The notes below the pieces were generated by a model. The model searched no databases. It had not been told where the DNA came from and worked only from the letters and a program-made list of their open reading frames with translations. DNA of 32,000 nucleotides. Source: Crocosphaera subtropica ATCC 51142. GTDB lineage: Bacteria; Cyanobacteriota; Cyanobacteriia; Cyanobacteriales; Microcystaceae. Position numbers and translations under genes: made by a program. Below are positions 4,474-22,012 of this stretch, one piece after another. The DNA is taken from the NCBI RefSeq assembly GCF_000017845.1, contig NC_010546.1:1500001-1532000 (forward strand), in the 5' to 3' direction. Positions within the stretch are counted from its first letter, which is position 1. The number at the start of each line of letters is the position of its first letter.

Positions 4474-4491
4474 ATTTCTAAATTTGATGAA

Positions 4492-5307
4492 TTATCGTTC
4501 ACACACATGGGTCGGATCATCCGCTTTTTCTGCAAATTCTAGACCCTGTGCGAGTCGCCAAGCAAAAATCGGAGGCAACCCAACCTCAACGATGGCACGA
4601 CAAGTCTCCTGATAATCATAGGGGACTTCTCGTAAGGTCACTTGTTCTGTTTGAGTATCGTAGATAGCGTAAGTCGCATTGGGACGACCATGACGGGGTT
4701 CCCCCACTGACCCCACATTAATAATGCGTTTTAAAGGAGTTGTAAACTGTAAAACTTGCTCATTTTCAGGGGTAGATTGACTGACTTTGACTTGCAGTTG
4801 TCCTGACTCTAAAGTACGAATATAGGGAATATGAGTGTGACCACAAAATAGAATATCTGCATCGGAGGATAACACCCGTTCTAAAGCAGCAAAAGCATCA
4901 ATTTCTGGTAAAAGATATTCATGGTTACTTTGGGGACTCCCATGAACAAAACAGCAATTTTCTAACTTTAAAGTATGAGGTAATTGGGCAAGATATTGGC
5001 GATTTTCTAGGGTAATTTGTTGCTTTGTCCATTCATGGGCTAATTTTCCTCTTTTTTCAGCTAACAAAGATGGATAACTACATTCACAAGCGTTTAATCC
5101 TTCGACAATATCTTCATCCCAACACCCTTGAACGGTGGGAATATTTAGGTTGCGAATCGTTTCAACGACTTCATTGGGATAGGGTCCATAGCCCACTAAA
5201 TCCCCTAGGCAATAAATTTGGTCACAGGAATAGTGATCAATATCTTTGAGAACCGCTTCTAAGGCTTTCATATTGCCATGAAGACAAGACAAAACGGCAA
5301 TTTTCAT
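4492..5307 (-). CDS. Calcineurin-like metallophosphoesterase with Cys-substituted metal ligands
   Basis: The blocks are SCLHGN (C for D of DxH), CLGDLVGYGP, QGCWDED (C for N of GNxD), FVHGSP and FCGHTHIP. The ATG at 5307 shares one nt with the TGA of the upstream gene. A GTG at 5310 is an alternative start. Confidence 0.8.
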   Translation of the reverse strand: MKIAVLSCLHGNMKALEAVLKDIDHYSCDQIYCLGDLVGYGPYPNEVVETIRNLNIPTVQGCWDEDIVEGLNACECSYPSLLAEKRGKLAHEWTKQQITLENRQYLAQLPHTLKLENCCFVHGSPQSNHEYLLPEIDAFAALERVLSSDADILFCGHTHIPYIRTLESGQLQVKVSQSTPENEQVLQFTTPLKRIINVGSVGEPRHGRPNATYAIYDTQTEQVTLREVPYDYQETCRAIVEVGLPPIFAWRLAQGLEFAEKADDPTHVCER

Positions 5308-6086
5308 CACACTTTCTCCTTTTCTAATACTAAAGATTGTTTAACCTGTTGTTGATAATAAAAAATCGCTTCATCGGAGAGACAAAACTCTCCCAATGTA
5401 TCAGCAATGGCTTGTTTATCTAAATTACGCCCGACAATTTCTAATCCACTAAATTGTTGCGGTCTACCTTCTAAATTAAGGGGAAAGTTTAGAGGACAAA
5501 AGTCTTTTGGATACTTCCCTGATAAAAATTCTCCATAAATCCATTGGCCATCTAAAATAGTGAAAATTCCTTTGATTCTAATCACCTCTCCATAAGCTCC
5601 GTGAATTAATTCTAACCAAAAAGTTTCTAGGCTAGAAAAATCTAAAACCTCTCCTGTTAAAGTAGCCCGATAAATTTGTAAATCTAAACTATTGGGTAAT
5701 ACTAAATCATTTTTTCCATTGATTTCTTCGTTGAGAATAATTTCATCAGTCCACATTTGCCAGTCTTGTTTTTGTTCAACTTTTGAGATGAGCGCAAGGC
5801 GATGACAATTCAGTTGTTTCAGAAAAGAATCAATGGATTTTATCTCTAAATACCAAGGAACTTCTATATAGATATCATGGTGGTTAGATAAATGTCTTAA
5901 TTTATTTTCTTCTCCGTTGGCGAGAATTGAGAGATGTGGAAATTCACTTTTCAAATAAATGGCATCAATAGGAAACAAGTCTGTTTGAGGACTCCAATAA
6001 ATAATTGGAAGAGTAGCCTTTGACATTTTTTCTTTAATTAAGTGGGTTTTACCTGAACTAATGTTTCCCATAATTACAGTAATCAT
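5307..6086 (-). CDS. Divergent COG0523-like P-loop protein lacking the CxCC metal motif
   Basis: 259 aa. N-terminus is MITVIMGNISSGKTHL (P-loop). DIYIEVPWYLE sits where DYLIIETTGLAD would be. The C-terminus (VIRIKGIF..GLEIVGRNLDKQAIADTL) parallels the CobW_C tails of paralogs B, C and D. No GCICCT equivalent is present. Confidence 0.6.
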   Translation of the reverse strand: MITVIMGNISSGKTHLIKEKMSKATLPIIYWSPQTDLFPIDAIYLKSEFPHLSILANGEENKLRHLSNHHDIYIEVPWYLEIKSIDSFLKQLNCHRLALISKVEQKQDWQMWTDEIILNEEINGKNDLVLPNSLDLQIYRATLTGEVLDFSSLETFWLELIHGAYGEVIRIKGIFTILDGQWIYGEFLSGKYPKDFCPLNFPLNLEGRPQQFSGLEIVGRNLDKQAIADTLGEFCLSDEAIFYYQQQVKQSLVLEKEKV

Positions 6087-6163
6087 TGTTAGTTTCTCAT
6101 TTTAAAATTTTCAGGTTAATTTTTGATGGGGATAGACAGAATAATGTGCCAACTATCTTTAAT

Positions 6164-8011
6164 TTAAAAAGCCTTTTTATTCGTAATAGCTATTTTAAAC
6201 CTCTCCCGTAAATCTGCAACAGTTATTGTTCCTAAATCTCCTCCTTGACGAGTGCGAATACTCAGAGTTTGACTTTCAACTTCGCGCTTACCAACAATAG
6301 CAACAACGGGGATTTTTTCCAATTCACTAAGACGAATTTGTTTGCCTAAACGCTCCCCACTTGTATCAACTTCTACTCGATATCCAGCTTTTTTTAACCT
6401 AATTGCCACTGTTTTAGCATAGTCCTGTTGTTCATCACTAACAGGTAATAATCGCAGTTGAATGGGAGCTAACCACAAAGGAAAATCCCCTGCATAATTC
6501 TCAATTAAGATGCCAAAAAATCGCTCTAACGAGCCAAAAATAGCCCGATGAATCATAATAGGTTGTTGGCGACTTCCATCAGCAGCTACATATTCCATGC
6601 CAAAACGTTCAGGTAGATTAAAATCAACTTGAATGGTGGAACATTGCCACAGCCTTCCGATGGCATCTTTAATTTTAATATCAATTTTGGGTCCATAAAA
6701 AGCTCCTCCTCCTCGATCTTCAAGATAATTCCATTGTTTATTATTTAAGGCTTTTATTAATGCTTCAGTTGCTAATTGCCAAACTTGATCACTCCCTACA
6801 GATTTTTCAGGACGAGTGGATAAATTGACTTCATAATCAGTAAACCCAAAATCAGAAAGTATTTTTTCCGTTAAATTTAGGACCCCCAGAATTTCATCAG
6901 CAATTTGTTCCGGTAAACAGAAAATATGAGCATCATCTTGAGTAAACCCTCGTACCCGCATTAAACCATGTAAGACCCCAGATTTTTCATAGCGATAAAC
7001 TGTTCCTAATTCTGCCCATTTTAAAGGAAATTCTCGATAAGAATGCAGGTCATCTTTATAGGTTAAAACATGAAAAGGACAGTTCATCGGTTTAATTTGA
7101 TAAGTTTGATGTTCAACAGCCATTGCCTCAAACATATTTTCTCGATAAAAGTCCCAATGTCCTGATGTTTTCCATAGGTCTAAATTAGCAACATGGGGCG
7201 TATAAAGAAATTGATATCCGTCTTCTAAATGAGCGTTGCGCCAATAATCTTCGATTAAATAACGCATCATTGCCCCTCTAGGATGCCAAAAAACTAAGCC
7301 CCCTCCAGCATCTTCTTGGATACTAAAGAGTTTTAATTGTTGTCCTAACTTGCGGTGATCTCTCCGTTGTGCTTCTTCTTTTTGTGTCAGATAAGCTTGT
7401 AACTGTTCGGGAGTTTCCCACGCTGTCCCATAAATGCGCTGTAACTGCGGTTTGCTCTCATCTCCTTGCCAATAAGCCCCCGCCACACTTTCTAAAGCAA
7501 AAGCCTCCGGGTGAATTTCTCCCGTAAAATTGAGATGAGGCCCCGCACATAAATCCCACCAACAGGTATCAGGAGGCACGAGAACAGGGTTAATTAAAGA
7601 GGGTTGTTGTTCTGGTATATTCCCTCGTCCTCCGTCGGGACTCCCAATAAAATAGCGGGTAATGGACTCTGTTTCAGGAATGCTCTCTAAAATTTCAAGT
7701 TTATAGGGTTCGTTAAGTTCTGCAATTTCTGTCTGAATTTCAGCACGATCTACCACTTCTCGGATAATAGGTAGGTTTGCTTTGATAATTCTTCTCATTT
7801 CTCCTTCAATCTTTTTCATATCTTCTGGAGTAAAGGGGGTCAAGCGGTCAAAGTCGTAGTAAAAACCTGTTTCTGTCCAGGGGCCAATGGTTACTTTTGT
7901 CTCAGGAAACAGAGTTTGAACCGCCATCCCTAAAACATGAGCGCAGGTATGACGGATTTTTACCAGTTGTTGTCGGTCTTTATCTAGGAGTGGGGTGAGT
8001 TGGTTACTCAT
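6164..8011 (-). CDS. thrS: Threonyl-tRNA synthetase paralog lacking the N-terminal TGS domain
   Basis: Class II ThrRS blocks are present: RHTCAHVLG, DLCAGPH, RDHRKLG, KPMNCPFH, FTQDDAHIF, MIHRAIFGSLERF. The start is set at the ATG at 8011 (MSNQLTP). The longer ORF-track start at 8164 would run through the Zur boxes and the divergent gene. Confidence 0.92.
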   Translation of the reverse strand: MSNQLTPLLDKDRQQLVKIRHTCAHVLGMAVQTLFPETKVTIGPWTETGFYYDFDRLTPFTPEDMKKIEGEMRRIIKANLPIIREVVDRAEIQTEIAELNEPYKLEILESIPETESITRYFIGSPDGGRGNIPEQQPSLINPVLVPPDTCWWDLCAGPHLNFTGEIHPEAFALESVAGAYWQGDESKPQLQRIYGTAWETPEQLQAYLTQKEEAQRRDHRKLGQQLKLFSIQEDAGGGLVFWHPRGAMMRYLIEDYWRNAHLEDGYQFLYTPHVANLDLWKTSGHWDFYRENMFEAMAVEHQTYQIKPMNCPFHVLTYKDDLHSYREFPLKWAELGTVYRYEKSGVLHGLMRVRGFTQDDAHIFCLPEQIADEILGVLNLTEKILSDFGFTDYEVNLSTRPEKSVGSDQVWQLATEALIKALNNKQWNYLEDRGGGAFYGPKIDIKIKDAIGRLWQCSTIQVDFNLPERFGMEYVAADGSRQQPIMIHRAIFGSLERFFGILIENYAGDFPLWLAPIQLRLLPVSDEQQDYAKTVAIRLKKAGYRVEVDTSGERLGKQIRLSELEKIPVVAIVGKREVESQTLSIRTRQGGDLGTITVADLRERFKIAITNKKAF

Positions 8012-8021
8012 GCTATAAAAA

Positions 8022-8036
8022 TGATAATCATTATTA
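8022..8036. promoter_or_regulatory. Zur-type box, 11 nt upstream of the thrS ATG
   Basis: TGATAATCATTATTA matches at 14/15. Confidence 0.6.
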
Positions 8037-8038
8037 TC

Positions 8039-8065
8039 TTGACACAAAGAATAGTTTACTATAAA
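8039..8065 (+). promoter_or_regulatory. Sigma70-like promoter for the FAD oxidoreductase gene
   Basis: TTGACA (8039-8044), a 15-nt spacer, then TATAAA (8060-8065). The minus strand reads TATAGT over 8063-8058, a candidate thrS -10. The spacer is shorter than the optimum. Confidence 0.4.
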
Positions 8066-8067
8066 AA

Positions 8068-8082
8068 TGATAATCATTATCA
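8068..8082. promoter_or_regulatory. Perfect Zur-type palindrome
   Basis: TGATAATCATTATCA matches at 15/15 and is a perfect 7-1-7 inverted repeat. It lies directly after the + strand -10 element. Confidence 0.7.
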
Positions 8083-8097
8083 AAAAAGTGACCTGTG

Positions 8098-9315
8098 ATG
8101 AATTCCGCAAACTTAGAAAAGGTGGACATAGCCATTGTAGGTGCCGGTCCGCAAGCGTTAACATTAGTGACTCATATTCTGCAAAAAAAGGCCAAATTTC
8201 GCCGTCGTATGGTGGTTTTAGACCCTAGTGGCAGTTGGTTAAGTCAATGGCGACATCAGTTTGCCGCCCAAAACATCCCCCATTTAAGATCCCCGGCGGT
8301 ACATCATCCCCATCCTAACCCCTATCAGTTGAGAAAATTTGCCGAACATCGTTCAGATGAATTATTTGCCCCTTATGACTTACCAGGGACAAATTTATTT
8401 AATGATTTTTGTGAGGATCTTGTTAAAAGTTGGCAGTTAGAAAATTTAGTTTATTCTGATAAAGTAACTCGAATTTTGCCGATAAAAGTTCGTTCATATA
8501 ATCGATTTCAATTAATGTTAGAAAGTGGTAATCAATTAATTGTTCGTCGAGTTATTTTAGCAACAGGGGGTGGAATTCCTCAATTTCCTGATTGGGTCAA
8601 TAACATTAAAAAAACCTATCCTCAAGATAGATTATTACATTCTCAGCAGATAGATTTAAGAACAGTCAAATTAAAAAATAAACGAATTTTAATTATTGGT
8701 GGAGGCTTAACTTCTGGACATTTAGCAGTGGGGGCAATTGAGCAAGGGGCTAAGGTTATTTTAATGGCAAGACGACAGTTAAAAGAAAAATTATTTGACG
8801 CTGATCCAGGTTGGTTAGGTCCAAAATATTTAAAGGATTTTTATTTAGAATTGGACTGGGAAAAGCGATGGACCCTGATTCATCAAGCCAGAGATGGGGG
8901 ATCAATGACTCCTGCTATGATGTTAAAATTAAGACGGATGACAAGGGATAAACCTTTAACCCTTGAAGAAAATTGTCAAGTGGTTAAAGCTGATTGGAAA
9001 GATAATCAATGGCAAATAAAATGTCAAGATGAAAAACATTTTTCTTGTGATCAAATTTGGTTAGCCACAGGGACACAATTTAGGGTTAATGATCATCCTT
9101 TGTTCACTGATATCCAGAAAAATTATCCGACTCAATTTGTTCAAGGATTACCTATTTTAGATCAATATTTACGTTGGCCATCCTTAGAATTATTTATAAT
9201 GGGAGGCTTATCTGCTTTACAAATTGGTCCCGTTGCCCGTAATTTAGCAGGGGCAATTAAAGGGAGTCAAAGAATTGCTGAAGCCTTAATTAAGCCCAGT
9301 TTAGCTATGCTTTAA
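8098..9315 (+). CDS. FAD/NAD(P)-binding oxidoreductase (two-dinucleotide-fold, N-hydroxylating monooxygenase-like)
   Basis: IAIVGAGPQALT (GxGxxA) lies near the N-terminus and a second fold, ILIIGGGLTSGHLA, lies mid-protein. The start is either the ATG at 8098 or the GTG at 8095. Confidence 0.7.
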   Translation: MNSANLEKVDIAIVGAGPQALTLVTHILQKKAKFRRRMVVLDPSGSWLSQWRHQFAAQNIPHLRSPAVHHPHPNPYQLRKFAEHRSDELFAPYDLPGTNLFNDFCEDLVKSWQLENLVYSDKVTRILPIKVRSYNRFQLMLESGNQLIVRRVILATGGGIPQFPDWVNNIKKTYPQDRLLHSQQIDLRTVKLKNKRILIIGGGLTSGHLAVGAIEQGAKVILMARRQLKEKLFDADPGWLGPKYLKDFYLELDWEKRWTLIHQARDGGSMTPAMMLKLRRMTRDKPLTLEENCQVVKADWKDNQWQIKCQDEKHFSCDQIWLATGTQFRVNDHPLFTDIQKNYPTQFVQGLPILDQYLRWPSLELFIMGGLSALQIGPVARNLAGAIKGSQRIAEALIKPSLAML

Positions 9316-9334
9316 TTATAACAAAAAAGCTAGG

Positions 9335-9349
9335 GTAGGTAATACCTAC
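9335..9349. other. Perfect 7-1-7 palindrome GTAGGTAATACCTAC (operator or weak terminator stem)
   Basis: It lies 20 nt after the oxidoreductase stop codon. No U-tract follows it. Confidence 0.25.
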
Positions 9350-9425
9350 TAAATATCGTAGATCAACAATAAATAATTTGTTAAACTATCAATAGTAGTT
9401 ATTCTCAATCAACAATTTCAGTATC

Positions 9426-9791
9426 ATGAAATCAGCAATCTTCTTCACGCTTATTTCTCTTGGAATAACCAGCCATTCTCTTGTGAATGCTCAAATTCCT
9501 ATCCGAGAACTACAACGAAATACAGGGATCTCAATTTTTGGTGAAGTCAAAGATGTCGTAGGAAACGAATTTATTTTAGATGATGGAACAGGACACATTA
9601 TTGTGGATGCAGGCCCGCGCTGGTATCATCAGATTAATGTAACTTCGGGTGAAAAAATAACCGTTGTTGGAAAATATGATGATGATGATTTTGATGCTTA
9701 CACCATTAGGAAAAATAATGGTGAAGTGATTCAAATTCGTCAACCCGATGGACCTCCTCCTTGGGCTGGTGGTCGTGGTCAAGGAAGATAG
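9426..9791 (+). CDS. Secreted small OB-fold protein (BOF / YgiW-like)
   Basis: Signal peptide MKSAIFFTLISLGITSHSLVNA. The pattern ISIFGEV..FILDDGTGHIIVD..W..V..GEKITVVGKYDDD resembles the YgiW/BOF family. Confidence 0.6.
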   Translation: MKSAIFFTLISLGITSHSLVNAQIPIRELQRNTGISIFGEVKDVVGNEFILDDGTGHIIVDAGPRWYHQINVTSGEKITVVGKYDDDDFDAYTIRKNNGEVIQIRQPDGPPPWAGGRGQGR

Positions 9792-9857
9792 AAATTATCT
9801 GATATCCTAATCATTTTAGAACTGAACTTCCCCATCAAAAAATCGCTGATAGCTGAT

Positions 9858-9900
9858 GGCTGAACGCTTACAAACCAGCGGATTTAATCGAAGGTGCAAG
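9858..9900 (+). repeat. Dispersed intergenic repeat, copy 1 (inverted relative to 25148-25195)
   Basis: The reverse complement cttgcaccttcgattaaatccgctggtttgtaagcgttcagc aligns with cttgccccttcgattaaattagcgagtttgtaagccttctgctgaac. Confidence 0.7.
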
Positions 9901-9940
9901 ATGTAAGTCTTATACAAAATAAGGAAACAGTTTTAACTTT

Positions 9941-10056
<116 letters not shown>

Positions 10057-10066
10057 ATCAATTTCA

Positions 10067-12580
10067 CTACAGAAGAATATTCCATAACCCAATCGCTAAA
10101 ATCGAAGTAGATATATGTTGAACCATTAAATATTGAAAAGGCAATTTAGCAATTTTTTGAGTCAAAATGATTGATAAAACCACTCCAAAAATTAACAAGG
10201 TTTCTTGTAAAAAAGTAATAACAGCCGGATGAGCCACCATAACAGGAACTCCTTGCACAGAAAAGCCAAAGGTAGCTAAAGTAATGGGCAAGATTTGCCC
10301 AGCTTCTCCTAAACCAAGGGGCAAGTAATAAGCCAAATTCCCCGCTAAAACTAAAGGTAAATAACCGTATGCTAATTCCTTGAAGGGGCGAATTTTAACA
10401 GTGGATTGAAACCCGCCTAAAAAACCCATGATTTGATGAAAAACCAGAGGGAGTAATGCCGGCAAACTTAATACTAGAACAGCTAATCCTGAATGTATCC
10501 AAAATTGATTGAGATCCCAGGAAAACCCCAATTGAGCTTGTACCTGTGGCAAGCGATGTAAAAACACTGCATCTAATAATAAAAGCAGCAAAGCCACTTC
10601 ATAACTTCGGGGGACATGAGTGGTCCATAACTCAATCCCAGGTGGGCGTAAATTAAACTCCACAGAACGATGGGGACAAGCTTTTAAACAGGTCATACAT
10701 AAAACGCAATCTCGATTGTCTTCAAGTTGGGCAGGATGTGAATAGAGAGGACAACCATTGGTTTCTAACCCTTCCCCTTTTTGGGGGCCACCTTTGTAAC
10801 ATTGATAAGTCGTGCATTGTGCAGAACAGGTTCCTTGTTGCCCTCGTAATTCTGTCATGGAGAGTTTAGCAAACATTCCATTCATGCCACCAATGGGACA
10901 TAAATAACGACACCAAAAGCGACGTTCAAAAATCGTTGAGCAAATCATTGCTCCAGCCGTGATTAATAACAATAAACAAGAAGATAAATAAGCCGTGTTT
11001 TTTAAATCCCAGAGTTCTTCCCACAACAAAATTACGGCAAATAAACCCCATAAAAACCATCCACCCCAAGTTTCAGCTTCGTGACGGGGCCATTTTTTAA
11101 GTTTTCTCGGAAATAACCATAATGACACTTTTTGAGTGAGTTCTCCATAAATCATAAACGGACAAACAGCACACCACAATCTACCCACAAAGAGAAAACC
11201 TATCAACACCAGTGGCCACCACCAAGCCCAAAATAGATTTAAGGCAAAATTTTCTGCTCTTGTTTGGGGGCCAATCCACAGAATAATATTGATTAGAGCA
11301 AAGGCGATTACAGTAAAACCATAATTAAGTCTGTCAGGATACCATGGACTGCGAAAAAACTGACGTAAGCGAGGATATCCTTTGAGAAGATTAAAGCGAA
11401 ATTGCTGTTTTTTGCTTTGTGATGGCCAAATAATTTCTTCGGTGATTTCCTGATAGCCTTCTAACTGTACCAGCGCCCGTTCGATCAGATTTTCCAGTTC
11501 TCTCAAATTGTTGGGGAAGTCGTAAGCTTGGAGTTTTCGGATAGCTTCGGGAGTAATGCTAACTTTGGCTGTTCCCCTTCTGCGACACATCAAACTGATG
11601 TAGTAAGTCACTAAATCTTCAATGTCTTTTTTGCGAACTCGCAAAGGGGGAACTTTAATAATATTCTCTATCAACCCATCAATATTAGAGAGCTTTTTTT
11701 CAGAGATAACAATAATTCGACATTGACTGGTTTTGGCACTCGAAGGAGTGTTTTCTGAACGGCTTACGGGGTAATAAGTACCATCTTTTAATAATTGAGC
11801 AATGGGTTTGAATAACTCAGGGGAAAGTTCTTGAAGATTATTGAGTATCAGCGTTCCTTTGCCTAATGCTTCAAGTAAGCTCAATTTGCCCCCAACTCGC
11901 CCAAATAATTCAGCCCCACTGGCTTGTAATTGAGAACAGTTAATTTGAATAATTGGCTCTCGACGAAAAGGGGAACTAAAATGAAGTAAGGTGGCGAGAT
12001 TGTCTTTTTGTAGGCCAGGTTCGCCAAAAATCAATACAGGTTGACGATTATCTGAGAAGTTTTTGATCTGCGATCGCAATTTAATAGCGTAACGACTCTT
12101 ACCAATGACTCCCCGTTTCACTTTCGTGACTAAATAAGGACGTAAAATGGTTTGTCGTTCCTGTTGAAAACTTAATTCAGAAGATAATTCTTTAAGTTCT
12201 AAGGCTAATTGTTGCGAAAAGGCTTGAGTTATTTCTGGATATTGTTGGAGTAATGACTTAAAGTCTTCGGCATCTATGCACCATAATTCGCATCGGTTTA
12301 ACGTCACTAATGTTCTGGAAACGGGTTGCTCTAATATTAACGCCCTGAGATTAATTAAGGTTCCTGTCAGTAAACTAGCTTCTGGGGTTCCTTGACTTTG
12401 AATTTGTCCAGATTTGAGAATATAAAGTCTTTCAGGGGCAGTTCCACCTTTAACTAACGTTTGTTCCCCTTCCACCGTAATTAACTTCATGTGAAGGGCG
12501 ATGGCTTCAAGCACCTCAGAAGTTAATACAGTTAGGGGAGTATGTTCTCTTAGCCAAGTGATTAAATCAGAAGTAGCCAT
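10067..12580 (-). CDS. Multidomain protein: cNMP-binding-like domain, degenerate sigma54-interaction AAA+ domain, polytopic membrane 4Fe-4S (NapH/MauN-like) domain
   Basis: The N-terminus has LYILKSGQI..LRALIL..SRTLV. The AAA+ blocks are VLIFGEPGLQKD, AELFG, GTLILNNLQEL, PPLRVRKKDIEDL and FPNNLRELENLIE. The C-terminus has multiple TM helices with CAVCPF, CRYLCPIGG and CVLCMTCLKACPH. Confidence 0.8.
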   Translation of the reverse strand: MATSDLITWLREHTPLTVLTSEVLEAIALHMKLITVEGEQTLVKGGTAPERLYILKSGQIQSQGTPEASLLTGTLINLRALILEQPVSRTLVTLNRCELWCIDAEDFKSLLQQYPEITQAFSQQLALELKELSSELSFQQERQTILRPYLVTKVKRGVIGKSRYAIKLRSQIKNFSDNRQPVLIFGEPGLQKDNLATLLHFSSPFRREPIIQINCSQLQASGAELFGRVGGKLSLLEALGKGTLILNNLQELSPELFKPIAQLLKDGTYYPVSRSENTPSSAKTSQCRIIVISEKKLSNIDGLIENIIKVPPLRVRKKDIEDLVTYYISLMCRRRGTAKVSITPEAIRKLQAYDFPNNLRELENLIERALVQLEGYQEITEEIIWPSQSKKQQFRFNLLKGYPRLRQFFRSPWYPDRLNYGFTVIAFALINIILWIGPQTRAENFALNLFWAWWWPLVLIGFLFVGRLWCAVCPFMIYGELTQKVSLWLFPRKLKKWPRHEAETWGGWFLWGLFAVILLWEELWDLKNTAYLSSCLLLLITAGAMICSTIFERRFWCRYLCPIGGMNGMFAKLSMTELRGQQGTCSAQCTTYQCYKGGPQKGEGLETNGCPLYSHPAQLEDNRDCVLCMTCLKACPHRSVEFNLRPPGIELWTTHVPRSYEVALLLLLLDAVFLHRLPQVQAQLGFSWDLNQFWIHSGLAVLVLSLPALLPLVFHQIMGFLGGFQSTVKIRPFKELAYGYLPLVLAGNLAYYLPLGLGEAGQILPITLATFGFSVQGVPVMVAHPAVITFLQETLLIFGVVLSIILTQKIAKLPFQYLMVQHISTSILAIGLWNILL

Positions 12581-12653
12581 TGCTAAGTTGTCTCAATTTT
12601 CTTTTTATTTTAGAGCTTTTATTAGCCTTCGGGTGGGAGGCAGGAAGCAGGTG

Positions 12654-12686
12654 TTAGGTGTACTTCATGAGTCCGAAAAACACTAT
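12654..12686. repeat. Solitary arm of the 9941-type repeat, in inverted orientation
   Basis: The reverse complement of ttaggtgtacttcatgagtccgaaaaacactat matches 9941-9973 at 29/33. It is preceded by degenerate heptamers (ggaggca ggaagca ggtgtt). Confidence 0.75.
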
Positions 12687-12698
12687 ATCTCCATCATT

Positions 12699-13607
12699 TT
12701 AGACTGAGTTTCCTAAAAATTGTTTAATCTTTTCTGTCACTAATTCTGAGAATTCTTCGTATATTCCTAGGGTTCCAGGTAGAGAAACAGTTTTAACTTG
12801 ATCAATTTCCCTAATTGCTTCCATTTCTTGTTTAGAATAGGGGGGAGATTGTTCAGCAATAATGGTTAAAATTGGTTGAGATAAAGATTTAATTAAACTT
12901 AAAACATCTTCCCTAGTTTCTATGGGATCTAAGTTTCCTGTGACAAAAGCAACAGGCGCAAATCTTGCCCCTTTTTGTTGGGTAATATTGCGTTTATTGG
13001 TAATAAATTCATCGGTTAATTTTGTGCTATCAACATAAACATGACGACGATACATTAACTTAAGAAAACTAGGGGTTGTATTCAGATAATAAAGAAACTG
13101 ACCAATAATAGGCGTTCTGACTAGATTTTTCAATAAATTTCTGATACTTTTGGGAACACCCATTACCCTTAAAGGACCTCGCCAAGTTGGGGCAATTAAA
13201 ATCAGTTTACTAACAGTTTCAGGGGCAATTTTAGCTAAGTCTAAAGCATAACCAACACTATGTCCGGCAGCAATAATGATCACAGGTTTTTGAAACGTAG
13301 CGTTAACAAAATCTTTGAGTAATTGATGATAAAGTTGAGGATTATAATCTACCGCAGGCCGTTGAGAGTCCCCAAATCCTAACCAGTCTAACAAATAAAC
13401 TTGATAGTGTTGGGCTAATAATTGAGCAATTCCTGTCATTTCTGTCCGACTCGAAACGGTACTAAAAGCAGGTAAGAGTAAAACGGGATTTCCTTGACCT
13501 AATGTTTCGTAAGTCACTTGAAATTGCTCATTTTCCCAAGGCCAATTATATTGCTCGATAGTTCCTTGAGTATTGATTTTTGAGGCTTGAATCGTATTCA
13601 TAAACAT
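12699..13607 (-). CDS. Alpha/beta-fold hydrolase
   Basis: 302 aa. It has the nucleophile elbow AAGHSVGY (GHSxG) and the typical LLLPAF..DWLGFGDS N-terminal blocks. Confidence 0.75.
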   Translation of the reverse strand: MFMNTIQASKINTQGTIEQYNWPWENEQFQVTYETLGQGNPVLLLPAFSTVSSRTEMTGIAQLLAQHYQVYLLDWLGFGDSQRPAVDYNPQLYHQLLKDFVNATFQKPVIIIAAGHSVGYALDLAKIAPETVSKLILIAPTWRGPLRVMGVPKSIRNLLKNLVRTPIIGQFLYYLNTTPSFLKLMYRRHVYVDSTKLTDEFITNKRNITQQKGARFAPVAFVTGNLDPIETREDVLSLIKSLSQPILTIIAEQSPPYSKQEMEAIREIDQVKTVSLPGTLGIYEEFSELVTEKIKQFLGNSV

Positions 13608-13719
13608 TAATTATTGTCAATTATTTGTAACAAATATTAAAGAAAATTATCGATTATTGTTTATCTGATGAGCTAATGACCAATAATCACAATTATAACA
13701 AAATTGAGTTATGAATAAA

Positions 13720-13744
13720 CTTAGGTGAGCAATGCCCACCTAAG
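13720..13744 (-). terminator. Probable intrinsic terminator after COG0523-D
   Basis: CTTAGGTG / CACCTAAG form an 8-bp stem, plus an inner GC pair. On the minus strand it is followed by TTTATT. It lies 9 nt after the stop codon. Confidence 0.5.
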
Positions 13745-13752
13745 CACTTTAT

Positions 13753-14778
13753 TTATGCCAAACACTGATTAAGTTGTTGTTTGAGCATTTCCCCATCTAA
13801 ATTACGTCCAATTAACACTAATTGATTTCGGGGAGTGGTTTTCCAGTCATCAGCATTCATCGTATAACGTTTCCCACTCAGTTGAAAAATATGGCGTAAT
13901 TGACTTTCTTGAAACCATAATATTCCTTTTGCTCGAAAAACATTAGTAGTCAAATCATCCACAAAAAAGTTTTGAAATTTCTCTACAATAAAAGGGCGAT
14001 CGCTTTCAAAAGCAATAGAAACAAATCCATCTATGGTTAAATGATCAGAATGGTGATGGTGATGATCGTGATCATGTTCATGATCATGGTGGTGATGATG
14101 TTCAGTTGTGTCTTCTATCCTAAAATTCTCAGCATTATTAACATCAATATCGAGAATTAAAGGAAGAGGAACTTCTGTATATTGACTATGAATAATTCTC
14201 GCCCCTGACTTAATTTGATTAATATCTGTTTCTAATTGTTTAACTTTTTCATCTGAGATTAAATCGGTTTTATTGAGCAGAATAATATCACCATAAGTAA
14301 TCTGACGTAATGCAGCTTCACTTTGAGAATGTTCAGAGGTAAAGGTTTCTGCATCAACAACAGTTAAAATAGAATCGAGTCGGGTCATGTCCCGTAATTC
14401 AGTATTCAGAAAGGTTAAAGCAATAGGCAACGGATCAGCCACTCCTGTGGTTTCTAAAATTAAATAATCAATGTTATCCCCTTGCTCAAGAACTTGATAA
14501 ACGGCCTCAACTAAATCATCATTAATCGTGCAACAAATACAACCATTACTTAATGCCACCATATTTTCATCAATGGAGACTAATAACTGACTATCAATAT
14601 CAATATCACCAAACTCATTGACTAATACGGCAACTTTTAACTGTTGATTATTGGTCAAAATATGGTTAACTAAAGTGGTTTTTCCACTGCCTAAAAAACC
14701 TGTAATAATGGTTACAGGCATTCCCTGTTTAGGAAGATTTAAAGGAGATTTGTTAGGAACGGATAATGTTTGAGTCAT
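13753..14778 (-). CDS. COG0523/CobW-family G3E GTPase with His-rich insert (paralog D)
   Basis: Motifs GFLGSGKTTLVN, GCICCT, ETTGVADP and the CobW_C tail. The insert EHHHHHDHEHDHDHHHHHSDH carries 14 His in 21 residues. Confidence 0.92.
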   Translation of the reverse strand: MTQTLSVPNKSPLNLPKQGMPVTIITGFLGSGKTTLVNHILTNNQQLKVAVLVNEFGDIDIDSQLLVSIDENMVALSNGCICCTINDDLVEAVYQVLEQGDNIDYLILETTGVADPLPIALTFLNTELRDMTRLDSILTVVDAETFTSEHSQSEAALRQITYGDIILLNKTDLISDEKVKQLETDINQIKSGARIIHSQYTEVPLPLILDIDVNNAENFRIEDTTEHHHHHDHEHDHDHHHHHSDHLTIDGFVSIAFESDRPFIVEKFQNFFVDDLTTNVFRAKGILWFQESQLRHIFQLSGKRYTMNADDWKTTPRNQLVLIGRNLDGEMLKQQLNQCLA

Positions 14779-14846
14779 AATTGTATTAAGGGTGAGGAAA
14801 AGAAATCAGAGGCGATGAAGTTAACGCCCCTGTTAGCAGTCATGAT

Positions 14847-15485
14847 TTAACCTTGAAATGTGGGAGAATGACGAATTAAACTCATAAATTCTTGCCGAGT
14901 TTTGGCATCCTCTGCAAATACACCTCGCACTGCACTGGTAGTGGTCCAAGAACCCGGTTTTTGAACGCCACGCATAACCATGCACATATGGGTCGCTTCT
15001 ACCACAACGGCCACCCCTTTGGGTTGTAATAATCCTTGTAAGGCATCTGCAATCTGTGCGGTGAGGCGTTCTTGTACCTGTAACCGTCGTCCGTACATTT
15101 CACAAATACGGGCAATTTTTGAGAGGCCAATGACTTTCCCATCCGGAATATAAGCAACATGAGCGCGACCCAAAATGGGTAAAATATGATGCTCACAGGA
15201 ACTAAAGAGATCAATATCCCTCACTAGAACCATTTCATCGGTATTTTCGTGAAATACTGCCCCATTGAGCAGTTCATCAAGGGATTGATGATAGCCAGAG
15301 GTCAAAAATTTTAGGGCTTTGACCACCCGTTTTGGCGTGTCTCTGAGTCCTTCTCGGTCAGGATCTTCTCCCAGTCCTAAAAGTAGGGTTCGGACGGCCT
15401 GACGCATTTCTTCCTCGGTGACAGGAGGATGGGATGAACTGACAAGTCTCGGCAAAGCAGAATTATATTCCTTGGATAAAGTCAT
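14847..15485 (-). CDS. folE: GTP cyclohydrolase I, type IA (Zn-ligand triad retained)
   Basis: 212 aa. It has SSCEHHILP and [10 protein letters not shown] (the Cys/His/Cys zinc triad positions of FolE) and QVQERLT. Confidence 0.93.
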
Positions 15486-15512
15486 TGATTAAGTGGGGAG
15501 ATAGAGATAAAA

Positions 15513-15527
15513 TGATAATCGTTCTCA
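15513..15527. promoter_or_regulatory. Zur-type box upstream of folE
   Basis: TGATAATCGTTCTCA matches at 13/15. It lies 28 nt upstream of the folE ATG. Confidence 0.5.
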
Positions 15528-15555
15528 ATTTTAGCACAAAGTGACATTCTCGTAG

Positions 15556-15580
15556 GTTGGGTTGAGGAACGAAACCCAAC
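15556..15580. repeat. GTTGGGTT-N9-AACCCAAC stem-loop
   Basis: 8-bp perfect stem with a 9-nt loop, 12 nt downstream of the atpA stop codon. No U-tract follows. From memory, it resembles a hairpin repeat common in cyanobacterial intergenic DNA. Confidence 0.5.
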
Positions 15581-15592
15581 AATATGATGAAC

Positions 15593-17101
15593 TTACATTT
15601 CTAGGGTTGATAATTGATGCAATAATGCCTCTTTATCTGCTTCACTTAAAGAGTCTCCTGATTGAATCTTGTCACAAATGTCGGGAAGTTTTTCTGTTAC
15701 CATCTGACAAATTTTTGTTTCTGCTTCTCTAATATTTTCTAGGGGGACATCATCTAAAATTCCTTCGTTGATAGCAAATAAAACAGCAATTTGTTCAGCA
15801 ACAGAAAGAGGATGAGATTGAGGTTGTTTGAGGATTTCTCGCACTCGTCTACCTCGTTCTAAGGTTTGTCGGGTATCTTCATCTAATTGGGTTCCAAAAC
15901 GGGCAAAAACTTCGACTTCTTGGAATTGAGAATAGGATAAGCGTAAATCTCCGGCTACTTCTCCATAAGCCCGTAATTGGGTTTTTCCGCCCACCCGTGA
16001 CACTGATTTTCCCACAGAAACCGCAGGTAAAATTCCTTTTTGATAGAGATCCGGAGACAGATAAATTTGACCGTCTGTGATAGAAATTAAATTAGTGGGA
16101 ATATAAGCAGAAATACTTTGAGCCTGGGTTTCAATAATGGGTAAGGCAGTTAAAGAACCGCCGCCCCATTCTTCTCGAAGATGGGTAGAACGTTCGAGTA
16201 ATCGAGAGTGAATGTAAAAAATATCGCCGGGATAGGCTTCTCTTCCGGGAGGACGGCGTAATAAGAGAGAAAGCTCTCGATAAGCCCAAGCATGACGGGT
16301 TAAATCATCATAGACAATTAAAACATCCCGTCCCTTTTCCATAAAATACTCCCCGATAGAAGTAGCTGCATAAGGGGTAATATATTGCAAACCGGGGGGA
16401 TCTTCTCCATCGGCTACGACCACGATAGAATAGTCTAGGGCTTCTGCTTGCCGTAATTGTTCGATAACCTTGGCAACCGCCGAAGTACGTTGACCAATGG
16501 CGCAATAAATACAAATAACATCCTTATCCTTTTGATTTAATATGGTATCCACTGCGATCGCCGTTTTTCCAATTTGGCGATCGCCGATAATCAGTTCTCG
16601 CTGTCCCCGGCCGACGGGTATTAACGCATCAACCACTTTTAACCCGGTTTGTAAGGGAACCGTAACCGGCGCACGATGGATAAAAGGGGGTGCTTTGCGT
16701 TCGATGGGAAATTGAGTTTCAGTAGAGATGGTTCCTTGATTATCTAAAGGACGACCTAAACCGTCAACAATACGTCCTAATAAGGCTTCTCCCACGGGAA
16801 TTTGTACAATTTTACCGGTTCGTTTAACTTCTTGACCGGCTTCTAAATGTTCGCTATTTCCTAATAGAATAACCCCTAATTCATCTACGTCTAAGTTAAA
16901 GGCAATCCCTAAAATATCCCCTGGAAAACGCACTAATTCATCGGCTTTAACGTTGGGTAAACCGATAACTTTAGCGACTCCTTGATCAATGGACTTCAGA
17001 ATCCCAATTTCTCGCGGTTGAATTTTGGCTTGATAGTTATTTAATGTTTCGTCAAGCTGAGTAAGGGTATTTTCAAGAACGGTTTGTAAGGTTTTTTCCA
17101 T
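15593..17101 (-). CDS. atpA: N-type ATPase alpha subunit
   Basis: 502 aa. It has the Walker A GDRQIGKT, and F1-alpha blocks are present throughout. The N-type assignment comes from the operon context. Confidence 0.92.
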
Positions 17102-17115
17102 TGTTTATTTTACAT

Positions 17116-17319
17116 TCATTGATTAGTTTCTTCAATTGCTTTGATCACTTGTTTAGTAATTTTAGGATGACGAATTTTTCCAGAGTGGAAAGGAACAACA
17201 ACTCGAATCTCATTTTTAAGATAAATTCGATGACTTCCCTGAGTTCTCAATAAAATAAAATCAGCATCAAACAGCAGTTTTTCTGCTTCTTTAGCGGTTA
17301 ATCTTGGCAGTTTAGGCAA
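17116..17319 (-). CDS. hicA: HicA-family mRNA interferase toxin
   Basis: 67 aa. LTAKEAEKLL..RTQGSHRIY..VVVPFHSGK.I fits the YcfA/HicA pattern, including the GSH catalytic His. Confidence 0.85.
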   Translation of the reverse strand: MPKLPRLTAKEAEKLLFDADFILLRTQGSHRIYLKNEIRVVVPFHSGKIRHPKITKQVIKAIEETNQ

Positions 17320-17536
17320 CGTTAACCTCTATACTCATGGTTAAAATTTCTTGATTAAGTAAAGTTTCCTTTTCTTCCTCAGATAAGGTTGATAAATAGA
17401 GTTCAATGGCTTCTTGAATATTTCTTTTGACTTCTTCGACGGTATCTCCTTGACTCTGACATCCTTCTAATTGAGGACAATAAGCATAATATCCATCTTC
17501 ATCTTTTTCAATAATAATACTAATTTGATATGACAT
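17312..17536 (-). CDS. hicB: HicB-family antitoxin (short, N-terminal HicB fold only)
   Basis: 74 aa. IIIEKDEDGYYAYCPQLEGCQSQGDTVEEVKRNIQEAIELYL is a typical HicB/UPF0150 pattern. It overlaps hicA by 8 nt. Confidence 0.85.
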   Translation of the reverse strand: MSYQISIIIEKDEDGYYAYCPQLEGCQSQGDTVEEVKRNIQEAIELYLSTLSEEEKETLLNQEILTMSIEVNVA

Positions 17537-17558
17537 AATGAGTGATTCCTATTTAATA

Positions 17559-18293
17559 TTATATTTCTAAAGCTTCTACATAGTCCTTTAAATTCCAAGC
17601 AATTTTATAATCGCTGGCTTGTAATTCAATGCCACAAATTAAGTCTGAATTGGTCATAAATTGTACATTATCACCTTGATAAATGTGAGTTTGCTGGAGT
17701 GAACTTAGAAGGCGATTGCGACTTTCAGGGGAAATTTCAAAATGACTACGAATGATTAAACCATTATCTGTTGTGTTAAGAGAGTTGGCTAAATTTTCTC
17801 GCTCTTTTTCTGATAAATTTTCGAGACGATGAATAAATTGATTAATGATTTGTTGTTCTAAAGAAGCATTAGCTAAATCTCCTAAAACATGACCAGTAAT
17901 CTTATAAATTTGCTGCATGATCTTTTCTTGAAACCTATCAAAAAATTGAGCTTTTTCTCGCTCTAGTGATTCGTCCCAAGTCTTGCGTTTTTGTTCAACA
18001 TCTTGACGTGCTTCTTCCACCAAATTATCATATTTTTCATCTGCTTTAGTTTGGGCTTGAATCATTATTTCTTGTTTTTTTTCTTCTAATTCTTGTTGTT
18101 TTTTCTGATAAGAATTAGCCTCATTTTTAGCAGATTTTTTTTCTTTTTCTGCATCTTGCCAACGATTTTCAATTTCCTGTTGACGAGCTTTAATTGTTTT
18201 TACAATCGGTTTATATAAAAAACGATTCAGTAAAAAAACTAAAATGAGGAAATTAATGATTTGAGCAACAATGGTAAACCAATCAATTAGCAC
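17559..18293 (-). CDS. atpF: N-type ATPase b subunit (long form)
   Basis: 244 aa with one N-terminal TM helix followed by a long charged coiled coil. Its position after the c subunit supports the call. Confidence 0.8.
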   Translation of the reverse strand: MLIDWFTIVAQIINFLILVFLLNRFLYKPIVKTIKARQQEIENRWQDAEKEKKSAKNEANSYQKKQQELEEKKQEIMIQAQTKADEKYDNLVEEARQDVEQKRKTWDESLEREKAQFFDRFQEKIMQQIYKITGHVLGDLANASLEQQIINQFIHRLENLSEKERENLANSLNTTDNGLIIRSHFEISPESRNRLLSSLQQTHIYQGDNVQFMTNSDLICGIELQASDYKIAWNLKDYVEALEI

Positions 18294-18296
18294 GAG

Positions 18297-18575
18297 TTAA
18301 CCCCCTGCATTTTGTACAAAATAATTCCAAAAAGGATTAGCAAAAATTAAAATCATCGAAACAACAAAACAATAAATTGCGGTTGATTCTACTAAAGCTA
18401 AACCCACAAATAAAGTACGAGTAATCGTATTAGCTTTATCCGGTTGTTGTGCTAAAGCTCGTAAGGCATTCGCCAAGGCTAACCCTTCTCCAATAGCAGG
18501 GGCAACGGAACCAATAGCAATGGTTAATCCTGCGGTAATAATGGAAACGATACCCGTTAAACCTAGATTGTCCAT
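18297..18575 (-). CDS. atpE: N-type ATPase c subunit with Na+-type ligand set
   Basis: 92 aa hairpin. Helix 2 carries LVESTAIY (the E-S-T..Y motif). Helix 1 carries AIGEG, with Glu at the position of Gln32 in the Ilyobacter tartaricus c subunit. Confidence 0.9.
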   Translation of the reverse strand: MDNLGLTGIVSIITAGLTIAIGSVAPAIGEGLALANALRALAQQPDKANTITRTLFVGLALVESTAIYCFVVSMILIFANPFWNYFVQNAGG

Positions 18576-18613: not shown

Positions 18614-19306
18614 TTATGCGTGATGATTGCCAGTTTTCCGTTGTTGAAGATTCATCCCTGATGCAATATAAACCATTGCCAGAATAGTAAAAACATAGGC
18701 TTGAATCACTCCCACTAATAAACCAAATAAGGTCATCACAGCCGGGAAAAATAAAGGAACAATGGAAATTAAAATAGCCACTAATAAACTGGTACTCATA
18801 ATATTACCAAAAAGACGAATCGCCAGAGAAACAGTGCGGGATATTTCACTGATCAAATTAAAGGGTAACATCACAGGAGTGGGTTGAATATAATGGCGCA
18901 AATAGTTAGTAATGCCGACATTTTTAATGCCATAAATAGGCACAGCAACAAATACACATAATGCTAACGCTGCTGTAGTAGAAAGAGAGCCAGCCGGCGA
19001 CTGATAAACTGGGAAAATGGTTAATAAATTGGCCATAGTAATGAATAAAAATAATGTGCCAATAAAAGGTAAAAATTGATCCGCTTTTTGTTGACTGGCA
19101 TCTCGAATTTGTTGGCGAATTTGTTCAACAATAATTTCTAAGGCAACTTGCCAACGAGATAGAGGGGGTTCGATGGATAAGTTTCTAGTAATTAGCCAAG
19201 ATCCTAACACTAAAATTAGCATTACTAACCAACTAAAAACAATAGTAGCGTTAAGATTTATCCATTGCCATTGCCAATAAATGATACTGTCAGGGGTGAT
19301 ATCCAT
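18614..19306 (-). CDS. atpB: N-type ATPase a subunit
   Basis: 230 aa polytopic protein with the conserved Arg block SLAIRLFGNIMS. Confidence 0.88.
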   Translation of the reverse strand: MDITPDSIIYWQWQWINLNATIVFSWLVMLILVLGSWLITRNLSIEPPLSRWQVALEIIVEQIRQQIRDASQQKADQFLPFIGTLFLFITMANLLTIFPVYQSPAGSLSTTAALALCVFVAVPIYGIKNVGITNYLRHYIQPTPVMLPFNLISEISRTVSLAIRLFGNIMSTSLLVAILISIVPLFFPAVMTLFGLLVGVIQAYVFTILAMVYIASGMNLQQRKTGNHHA

Positions 19307-19383: not shown

Positions 19384-19680
19384 TTATTTCAAATCGGAGT
19401 TGGATAACTCAGGTTTCAAAACATTAGTTAAGACAATTCTTGCTAAGATAAATCCTCCTAAACAAATTAATATTCGTTGCCACTGTCCATCCATAATGAG
19501 ATAAAAACCAAACAGTGTCACAAAAATACGACCTAAAAAACTACCAATAAATAAACGCACTGGATAAACGGTTGTTGGCAGTTGTCGCACCGTAATCCAA
19601 AGACTACTAAAGTAAAAAGTTCCTAAAATGATGCCAAAAATAAAAGGAATTAAATTCTCTAAAATAAAGCCTATCATCAT
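19384..19680 (-). CDS. atpR: N-ATPase-specific AtpR subunit
   Basis: 98 aa with three TM segments and a membrane-embedded Arg (LWITVRQL). Its position between atpQ and atpB supports the call. Confidence 0.75.
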   Translation of the reverse strand: MMIGFILENLIPFIFGIILGTFYFSSLWITVRQLPTTVYPVRLFIGSFLGRIFVTLFGFYLIMDGQWQRILICLGGFILARIVLTNVLKPELSNSDLK

Positions 19681-19786
19681 AATTTTATCCTCATTAAGTT
19701 ATCAAATAGATAATTATTAATTTGTTAATTTGTTGTGCATTAATCATGGCTTATTTAATACTTTAGTACAAACGTAAAAACGCTTT

Positions 19787-19854
19787 CTCCCTGCTCCCTA
19801 CTCCCCACTCCCCTTCAATCTCAATTAGCAATTTAGATGCTTAATAGCTTAACC
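19787..19854. repeat. Heptamer-plus-tail repeat element inside the N-ATPase operon
   Basis: The heptamers are ctccctg ctcccta ctcccca ctcccct. A tail follows, tcaatctcaattagcaatttagatgcttaatagcttaacc, which is about 75 percent identical to 22318-22358. The element ends 2 nt from the atpQ stop codon. Confidence 0.75.
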
Positions 19855-19856: not shown

Positions 19857-20160
19857 TCATTCATCTTGACTCTCTCGTTGTATCCAATACCAAGCATTAA
19901 GACAGCCAATAATCACCCCCAAAAATAACATCATTAACGTCCAAGAATAGGGATCATTCAACTTAAGATCCAGCCAAACACCCACAGCAATACCAATGAG
20001 GGTAGGAATAGCCACGGACCACCCCACAATGCCAAACATACCCAAACCATACCAAATGGTGCGATCGCCTTCTTTTCGAGCAGTCATTTTGCGATTAGCT
20101 TTATCTTTCACGGCTTGTTGAAAGTTGTCTTGTCTTTTGTGATGGGTTTTTCGGGGTTCA

Positions 20161-20174
<14 letters not shown>
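19857..20174 (-). CDS. atpQ: N-ATPase-specific AtpQ (AtpZ/AtpI-like) subunit
   Basis: 105 aa with a basic N-terminus followed by two TM helices (WYGLGMFGIVGWSVAIP..). It overlaps atpC by 14 nt. Confidence 0.75.

Positions 20175-22012
<1,838 letters not shown>

Follow-up and report, generated by a model that had tools for sequence, protein, structure and literature searches.

The window analysed here, a stretch of 32,000 nucleotides from Crocosphaera subtropica ATCC 51142 (contig NC_010546.1, positions 1,500,001 to 1,532,000), carries an operon for an N-type ATPase (N-ATPase) in which a hicB-hicA (hicBA) toxin-antitoxin (TA) pair lies between atpF and atpA. We consider it probable, at about 0.7, that this pair is a selfish or defence-type Class 2 hicBA passenger that settled in one of the permissive spacers of an operon which is itself accessory and laterally mobile, where it would have replaced an earlier TA cassette and would be expressed by read-through. 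Coordinates are positions in the window unless another locus is named (Table 1), and were obtained from the listing of open reading frames (ORFs), a reading of the raw sequence, and Pfam profile matches with curated cut-offs. Other loci that were compared are given by their L numbers.

An earlier note on this DNA had described a complete, same-strand pair of hicB (74 aa) and hicA (67 aa, with a GSH motif) at the atpF-atpA junction, flanked by spacers of 22 and 14 nt. The ORFs and Pfam matches confirmed the pair, and the spacer lengths matched the coordinates exactly. HicB matched PF15919 with 40.1 bits (cut-off 27, E 4.7e-10), and UPF0150 was matched too; the alignment covered just positions 3-60 of the 123 in the PF15919 profile, indicating a partial RNase-H-like/UPF0150 domain. 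A sequence-level Pfam search for a DNA-binding domain in HicB gave no ribbon-helix-helix (RHH), helix-turn-helix (HTH) or Phd match at E ≤ 0.01. In the PDB, the HicB sequence matched TTHA1756 (2yzt), HicB3 (4p78) and the E. coli and Burkholderia HicB proteins (6g1c/6g1n). HicA matched PF07927 over residues 10-62 (37.7 bits, cut-off 27, E 2.2e-9), and residues G28-S29-H30, which place the catalytic His in a Gly-x-His motif, were invariant across 58 aligned sequences. The AlphaFold (AF2) model of HicA, with a predicted local distance difference test (pLDDT) score of 85.9, had the order alpha-beta-beta-beta-alpha (helix 9-18, strands 22-27, 30-35 and 38-43, helix 52-66), and its best PDB matches in Foldseek were all HicA structures, namely 1whz (template modelling (TM) score 0.75), 6g26 (0.70), 6hpb and 4c26. 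With 270 HicA and 348 HicB homologues at E ≤ 1e-5, the identity of the pair is far beyond chance.

The two genes overlap by 8 nt (TTGCCTAA), the start of hicA lying inside the 3' end of hicB. A Shine-Dalgarno-like GAGG is found within hicB, 8-11 nt 5' of the hicA TTG, and the atpF-hicB spacer carries AGGA at -14 to -11. The hicB-hicA order, the TTG start, the GGAGG/GAGG element and the 8-nt overlap were kept in six related loci (L004, L084-L087 and L089). Class 2 hicBA modules have been described as having a small HicB (63-103 codons) without a DNA-binding domain, hicB placed 5' of hicA, and genes that are closely linked or overlapping, suggesting translational coupling; Classes 1 and 2 are experimentally untested and their regulation is an open question according to the same study (Gerdes, 2024, mBio, PMC10865869). 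The window pair fits every sequence criterion of the class and on that basis is a predicted Class 2 type II hicBA module.

To place this arrangement among other N-ATPase operons, we used 80 N-ATPase loci from a one-genome-per-species AtpA scan, 77 of which had a readable atpF-atpA junction, and a second set of 60 distant metagenomic operons with this junction, drawn from an AtpF metagenome scan. hicBA was present at the atpF-atpA junction in one of the 77 genomes, that of Cyanothece sp. BG0011 (AtpA 99%), where it has the same position and boundaries, while none of the 60 metagenomic junctions held a TA pair. HicBA matches were restricted to L001-L004 among 83 loci. The atpF-atpA spacer had a median length of 96 nt over the 77 readable junctions and was mostly empty, the empty spacer measuring 45-200 nt in most N-ATPase operons. 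The presence of hicBA is lineage-specific, being found in ATCC 51142 and BG0011 only. The earlier note had taken the pair for an insertion, and this proposal held, the arrangement being far from universal. The AtpF metagenome scan, used also to seek further close relatives, returned only operons at ≤39% identity. Larger atpF-atpA gaps in the metagenomic operons were considered as inserted genes and rejected, as they correspond to Lys/Pro/Glu-rich C-terminal extensions of AtpF. Such extensions, of low complexity, rich in Lys, Pro, Glu and Ala and 100-180 aa long, were seen in the sediment-metagenome operons L117, L122, L148, L151, L170 and L172.

In the sister species, the place of hicBA is taken by a different TA family. 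C. chwakensis CCY0110 (AtpA 97%) has ParD (PF03693) and ParE (PF05016, 63 bits) encoded at the atpF-atpA junction, and the 86 nt that precede them contain a TGGCA-N15-TGCCA palindrome. Crocosphaera sp. MO_192.B18 (L006; AtpA 93%) has an orthologous parD and, 3' of it, a parE broken in two by an IS605-family tnpB, and the C-terminal codons of parE reappear immediately 5' of atpA. Since atpA of MO_192.B18 showed 87% identity against 93-96% among the other three genomes, we took it as the outgroup; because this outgroup shares parDE with CCY0110, parsimony indicates that parDE is ancestral. On this reading, hicBA most probably took the place of parDE in the lineage of ATCC 51142 and BG0011.

The edges of the variable segment could be placed closely. 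An 18-nt leader 5' of atpA (ATGAATGTAAAATAAACA) was identical in alignments of the window, BG0011 (both with hicBA) and CCY0110 (with parDE). By blastn, homology to CCY0110 was broken at 17133-17562, being lost in the last atpF codons and regained 18 nt 5' of the atpA ATG. AtpF ends in ...LEI before its stop codon in the window and in ...LDI(D/E)KN in the parDE-bearing relatives, and we therefore placed the left edge of the cassette in the last atpF codons. Target-site duplications, which the earlier note had proposed to look for, were not found around the cassette; the flanking matches were short (9-14 nt) and attributable to chance. Homology of the empty-junction spacers of L008-L010 to the left spacer of CCY0110 was rejected, as these could not be aligned, and a derivation of the last hicA codons from the flank was unsupported, the C-terminal length and sequence being within family norms. 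Synonymous divergence between the window and BG0011 (L004) was 0.23-0.36 from atpD to atpB and 0.05-0.20 from atpE to atpA, with hicBA lowest, which hints at a recombination tract over the distal half of the operon.

Outside BG0011, the closest HicB and HicA homologues (75-89% aa identity) were those of Rippkaea PCC 8801, Crocosphaera UHCC 0190 and Crocosphaera metagenome-assembled genomes (MAGs). They sit in defence/TA islands together with type IIG restriction-modification genes, PIN toxins, DUF2281 and Tn7-like elements or genes. The family also has members in Helicobacter prophages and on a plasmid of Synechocystis PCC 6714 (70.7% nt identity). The length of DNA 5' of hicB is 48-329 nt in free-standing relatives and 22 nt in the window. 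At the DNA level, these 22 nt aligned with the leader of the free-standing hicBA of Rippkaea PCC 8801-like genomes (L087/L089); going by this alignment the atpF-hicB spacer is a cassette-derived leader, and the cassette would have arrived with a mere upstream stub. Base composition was rejected as a mark of recent foreign origin, because the GC content of hicBA (31-33%) is the same as that of atpF. This equality suggests that the donor was probably a related cyanobacterium, or else that the insertion is old enough to have equilibrated.

The host operon is N-type, since it encodes AtpR (PF12966) and AtpQ (PF09527). AtpE carries the helix-1 Glu (...APAIGEGLA...) and the Na+-type ESTxxY motif (...LVESTAIYCF...), a criterion given by Dibrova et al. 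(2010, PMC2881411). That study describes the N-ATPase genes as a 'highly conserved atpDCQRBEFAG operon', reports such operons to be mobile and sometimes plasmid-borne, and already records that two Cyanothece strains have a 'two-gene insertion'; its main text neither names the inserted genes as TA pairs nor describes the strains as carrying different families.

Inserts in these operons were not confined to TA pairs. Those longer than 300 nt concentrated at the three junctions whose spacers are normally longest, atpQ-atpR (15 of 55 loci), atpF-atpA (11 of 77) and atpA-atpG (11 of 65), and were rare at tightly coupled junctions. The guest genes were of two kinds, transport and selfish/defence. 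A Na+/H+ exchanger gene of about 410 aa recurs between atpQ and atpR in filamentous cyanobacteria (L011, L027, L012, L016, L022, L032 and L044), with PF00999 in both of those tested, and its presence next to a Na+ pump makes functional sense. A P-type cation-transporting ATPase of 921 aa lies between atpF and atpA in a Pleurocapsa MAG. The selfish/defence guests include tnpB, type I restriction-modification genes (L042) and, between atpA and atpG, a Phd/YefM and YoeB pair in a Xenococcaceae MAG (L007), HicA, HicB and Uma2 in a cyanobacterial MAG (L058), and an Unstab_antitox protein with a weakly ParE-like protein in a deltaproteobacterial MAG (L036). Among about 80 N-ATPase operons, TA genes have been inserted independently at least five times, and six of the seven operons that contain them come from cyanobacteria. 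TA loci are abundant in cyanobacterial genomes, numbering in the dozens. The earlier note had expressed surprise at a TA cassette inside an enzyme operon; the location stands, and the surprise is diminished, as the operon is itself accessory and mobile and its long spacers often host guests.

Co-transcription of hicBA with the atp genes had been called almost certain in the earlier note. It is plausible, given that no terminator-like site was found on the minus strand at 17100-17560, that the junction RNA showed no unusual structure (fold z-score +0.99) and that the upstream spacer, at 22 nt, leaves scant space for a promoter, while the certainty was not upheld. On these features, read-through transcription of hicBA from atpF is likely. 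The same z-score led us to reject a structured RNA at this site, and a known RNA family was rejected too, no Rfam match being obtained anywhere in the window. A two-hexamer scan for promoter-like sites gave 32 sites, barely above the shuffled expectation of 22 ± 3.9, and was uninformative; it missed a TATAAT at 17558-17563 that is not accompanied by a good -35. This hexamer could be a candidate -10 box, or minimal cassette promoter, and could equally be a chance occurrence in DNA of 31% GC.

Logan contigs (SRR26036484-89) were considered as junction-spanning transcript evidence and rejected, since they break at the same G-rich repeat in the atpQ-atpR spacer; those ending on either side share an overlap of about 25 nt, which looks to us more like a break in the assembly graph than a transcript end. 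The repeat is a G-rich run (GGGGAGTGGGGAGTAGGGAGCAGGGAG) at about 19785-19812 on the minus strand, where the independent short-read assemblies SRR26036484-89 all break, a pattern suggesting that the genome contains further copies of the motif.

Comparison of the coding sequences pointed to decay of the toxin. In BG0011, codon 57 of hicA has changed from CAA to TAA, a nonsense change that costs the protein most of helix 2. HicA of the window has Arg at position 50, where Leu is found in 57 of 57 homologues (L50R), and Asp at position 20, where Gly is found in 52 of 57 (G20D). HicB of the window deviated at none of the columns conserved at ≥85% in 60 homologues. Ratios of nonsynonymous to synonymous substitution rates (dN/dS) for the atp genes were 0.03-0.29 between the window and either BG0011 or CCY0110 (atpA 0.05-0.06), and this clear purifying selection indicates that the N-ATPase operon is in use. 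The corresponding values were 0.22 for hicB and 0.58 for hicA, from substitutions too few for firm values. An intact antitoxin alongside an eroding toxin is the usual fate of chromosomal TA pairs that are not selected for toxicity. The earlier note had suggested addiction, an uncoupling of alpha from the membrane-sector genes or an internal promoter as possible roles of the cassette. The toxin lesions, with two of four lineages damaged and a third atypical, speak against a conserved function of the toxin in the biology of the ATPase.

The following sequence of events would account for these observations. In the common ancestor of ATCC 51142 and BG0011, hicBA would have replaced parDE, its 86-nt promoter/operator region and three atpF codons. 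Because the module kept just 22-30 nt or so of its own leader and HicB appears unable to bind DNA, hicBA would be transcribed mainly by read-through from the atp promoter, with atpA as the last gene of an mRNA running through hicBA. Preservation of the 18-nt leader through both cassette states suggests that it is the part that atpA needs. HicB would neutralise HicA by direct binding, and the weak TTG start and translational coupling would keep the toxin below the antitoxin. The module would serve no specific function in the ATPase, and its toxin would be undergoing attenuation or loss even as purifying selection continues to act on the atp genes.

Several observations weigh against this account. 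Both ORFs in the window are intact, and L50R is only a putative lesion of the toxin. Read-through was inferred solely from spacing and the absence of terminator-like motifs, and the perfect TATAAT (17563-17558) at the atpF stop makes an own hicBA promoter possible. The replacement rests on parsimony over four genomes, with atpBEF giving a near-trichotomy of the three closest; a possible parE remnant beside the conserved 18-mer was rejected, as 1399 of 5000 shuffles scored at least as well in local alignment. TA genes have also persisted at one junction through two families, and together with the pairs in L007, L036 and L058 this could mean that there is selection for TA.

Such selection would be expected if the cassette served to stabilise the operon, with post-segregational killing protecting a laterally acquired and dispensable N-ATPase, so that the TA at the junction is selected and not just tolerated. 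The junction is occupied through two successive families in all four Crocosphaera-clade genomes, further pairs lie between atpA and atpG in L007, L058 and L036 among the independent insertions counted above, and these operons are reported to be mobile and in some cases carried on plasmids (Dibrova et al., 2010). However, selection for addiction should prevent the damage seen in two of the four toxins and the atypical state of the third, and about 90% of N-ATPase operons are without TA. The frequency of TA is roughly that of random landing in permissive spacers, given the richness of cyanobacteria in TA (an estimate only), and the other guests at the same junctions (the Na+/H+ exchanger, P-type ATPase, tnpB and restriction-modification genes) are unrelated. 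We therefore regard addiction as unlikely. A wider proposal, to which we give the same low credence, is that the Crocosphaera atpF-atpA spacer is a dedicated TA 'landing pad', in which parDE and then hicBA displaced one another between fixed boundaries, and that mobile N-ATPase operons recruit TA pairs selected for stabilising the operon during or after lateral transfer, or for driving or shaping expression of the distal F1 genes. If this were true, the promoter-less Class 2 hicBA would be a natural TA module whose regulation has passed entirely to a host operon.

The lesions in HicA could instead mean that the pair is an inactive, neutrally drifting relic, its ORFs still open by chance and its HicA non-toxic. 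L50R, at a position that is Leu in 57 of 57 homologues, and G20D are in keeping with this, as are the nonsense codon in the sister hicA of BG0011 and the hicA dN/dS of 0.58, which comes from very few changes. Both ORFs, the GSH motif, the coupling signal (TTG, Shine-Dalgarno element and overlap) and every conserved HicB position are nevertheless intact, and hicB has a dN/dS of 0.22; retention of the antitoxin is expected if some toxicity remains. A dead remnant seems to us somewhat less probable than addiction. Domestication as a regulator, in which the dose of alpha relative to the membrane-sector genes is set by HicA cutting the polycistronic mRNA, or by an internal promoter or a translational coupling that the cassette supplies, is suggested by the hicA stop 14 nt before the atpA start, the strictly conserved 18-nt atpA leader, the TATAAT just 5' of hicB and the palindromic 86-nt region of the CCY0110 parDE, which could be an internal promoter/operator, but is very improbable, because ParE, a gyrase poison, and HicA, an RNase, have unrelated activities that cannot give the same specific regulation, most N-ATPase operons function with an empty spacer of 45-200 nt, the toxin genes are decaying, and promoter-like sites were barely above the shuffled expectation (32 versus 22 ± 3.9).

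Table 1. Positions of the cassette, the host operon and genes found in other N-ATPase operons.
Feature	Locus	Position	Strand	Remarks
atpD	Window	20552-21991	minus	Pfam
atpC	Window	20161-20562	minus	Pfam
atpQ	Window	19857-20174	minus	PF09527, 55.3 bits
atpR	Window	19384-19680	minus	PF12966, 104.6 bits
atpB	Window	18614-19306	minus	Pfam
atpE (c subunit)	Window	18297-18575	minus	Pfam; sequence motifs
atpF (N-type long b subunit)	Window	17559-18293	minus	244 aa; PF00430, ATP-synt_B
TATAAT hexamer	Window	17558-17563	minus	overlaps atpF stop codon, 22 nt 5' of hicB ATG; read from sequence
atpF-hicB spacer	Window	17537-17558	minus	22 nt, atpF stop to hicB ATG
hicB	Window	17312-17536	minus	74 aa, ATG start; antitoxin; cce_1505 of Crocosphaera subtropica (Cyanothece) ATCC 51142, 100% identical
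hicA	Window	17116-17319	minus	67 aa, TTG start; toxin, predicted RNase; 100% identical to a protein of ATCC 51142
hicA-atpA spacer	Window	17102-17115	minus	14 nt, hicA stop to atpA ATG
atpA leader ATGAATGTAAAATAAACA	Window	17102-17119	minus	18 nt; includes hicA stop codon; right edge of variable cassette
atpA (N-type alpha subunit)	Window	15593-17101	minus	502 aa; ATP-synt_ab; last atp gene here
Na+/H+ exchanger	L011	1079-2314		between atpQ and atpR
Na+/H+ exchanger	L027	2303-3526		between atpQ and atpR
P-type cation-transporting ATPase	L024	3180-5945		between atpF and atpA
Phd/YefM + YoeB	L007	1756-2350		between atpA and atpG
HicA + HicB + Uma2	L058	3584-4688		between atpA and atpG
Unstab_antitox + ParE-like	L036	3984-4516		between atpA and atpG
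~170-aa protein	L011	5302-5811		between atpF and atpA
~170-aa protein, tandem	L015	4875-5396 and 5383-5964		between atpF and atpA
~170-aa protein	L016	5352-5858		between atpF and atpA
~170-aa protein	L020	5042-5560		between atpF and atpA
AtpF-like ORF	L012	5523-5954		3' of atpF
AtpF-like ORF	L015	4115-4486		3' of atpF
AtpF-like ORF	L016	4675-5064		3' of atpF
AtpF-like ORF	L018	5545-5922		3' of atpF
AtpF-like ORF	L020	4474-4836		3' of atpF
atpG	L006 (MO_192.B18)	7641-8597		opposite strand to operon
DUF1816 gene	L017	7530-7787		after atpA
PF02482 gene	L110	7472-7843		between atpA and atpG
PF02482 gene	L131	4403-4882		between atpA and atpG

Downstream of atpA the window departs from most other operons, in which atpG directly follows atpA. 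No match to AtpG (gamma) was obtained anywhere in the 32-kb window, and folE begins 107 nt past atpA (atpA-folE region 14847-17101). The atpG of MO_192.B18 is encoded on the opposite strand, at a distance of about 1.8 kb. An N-type gamma of ATCC 51142, with a 50-aa N-terminal extension, is reported to exist elsewhere in the genome (2014 paper, PMC4154653). A search for literature mention of the locus tags cce_1503-1508 found none. Positions 540-15485, downstream of the operon, encode GTP cyclohydrolase I, three GTPases of the CobW family, one of which contains a His-rich segment, a protein resembling threonyl-tRNA synthetase, delta-aminolevulinate dehydratase and a metallophosphoesterase, and this cluster may be a zinc-limitation (Zur-type) paralogue island.

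Additional genes were seen in other N-ATPase operons. Proteins of about 170 aa, with a signal/lipoprotein-like N-terminus and no Pfam match, are encoded between atpF and atpA in several Oscillatoriales-type operons and might represent an accessory component that has escaped recognition. In five cyanobacterial operons, atpF is followed by another AtpF-like ORF, which is shorter; it matches the C-terminal part of AtpF, from about residues 100-120 to 243, at 35-39% identity, and is possibly a partner of the b'/delta type. In Rivularia/Mastigocoleus operons (L017, L022, L032 and L044), the gene after atpA encodes a DUF1816 protein, and a ribosome-hibernation-factor-like gene (PF02482) lies between atpA and atpG in two metagenomic operons.

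What is new here is the identification of the two inserted genes as a TA pair, the presence of a different TA family at the same junction in a sister species, implying replacement of the cassette, and the decay of the toxin visible across four sister genomes. If the replacement is as proposed, the junction is a clean and datable natural case of one TA family giving way to another at a single intergenic site in an enzyme operon. The 'highly conserved' N-ATPase operon has three permissive junctions, at which related transport genes as well as selfish and defence genes gather. The window hicBA, having almost no upstream DNA of its own, a defined host operon and a culturable strain, offers a simple test case for context-driven TA expression. 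The understanding of ATPases and of TA systems is unchanged by these results, which describe a modest evolutionary curiosity, an element of known kind in an unusual but explicable place.

With the N-ATPase operon of Dibrova et al. (2010), the window shares AtpR, AtpQ, the long AtpF, the absence of atpH, the Na+-type c subunit and the D-C-Q-R-B-E-F-A order; it differs in that this order is interrupted by hicBA between F and A, and in that atpG does not adjoin atpA, which is followed by folE. The parDE cassette of CCY0110 and MO_192.B18 occupies the same junction of the same operon and is likewise a two-gene type II TA on the operon strand, and in CCY0110 its right-hand boundary, the 18-nt atpA leader, is common to both cassettes. 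It belongs, however, to an unrelated family (ParD RHH antitoxin and ParE toxin) and has its own 86-nt palindromic upstream region. Compared with Class 2 hicBA modules, the window pair is alike in its hicB-first order, its 74-aa HicB without a DNA-binding domain and its gene overlap, and stands apart in having nearly no upstream region of its own and in lying inside a host enzyme operon, whereas its nearest relatives are free-standing. Classical HicAB systems (E. coli, Burkholderia pseudomallei and Yersinia pestis; Classes 3/4; 6hpb, 6g26, 4p78) have the hicA-hicB order, and their HicB represses its own promoter by means of a C-terminal HTH or RHH domain; in the window the order is reversed and HicB is without that domain. 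What the window pair shares with them is the toxin fold with its Gly-x-His motif and the N-terminal domain of HicB, which in the classical systems neutralises HicA.

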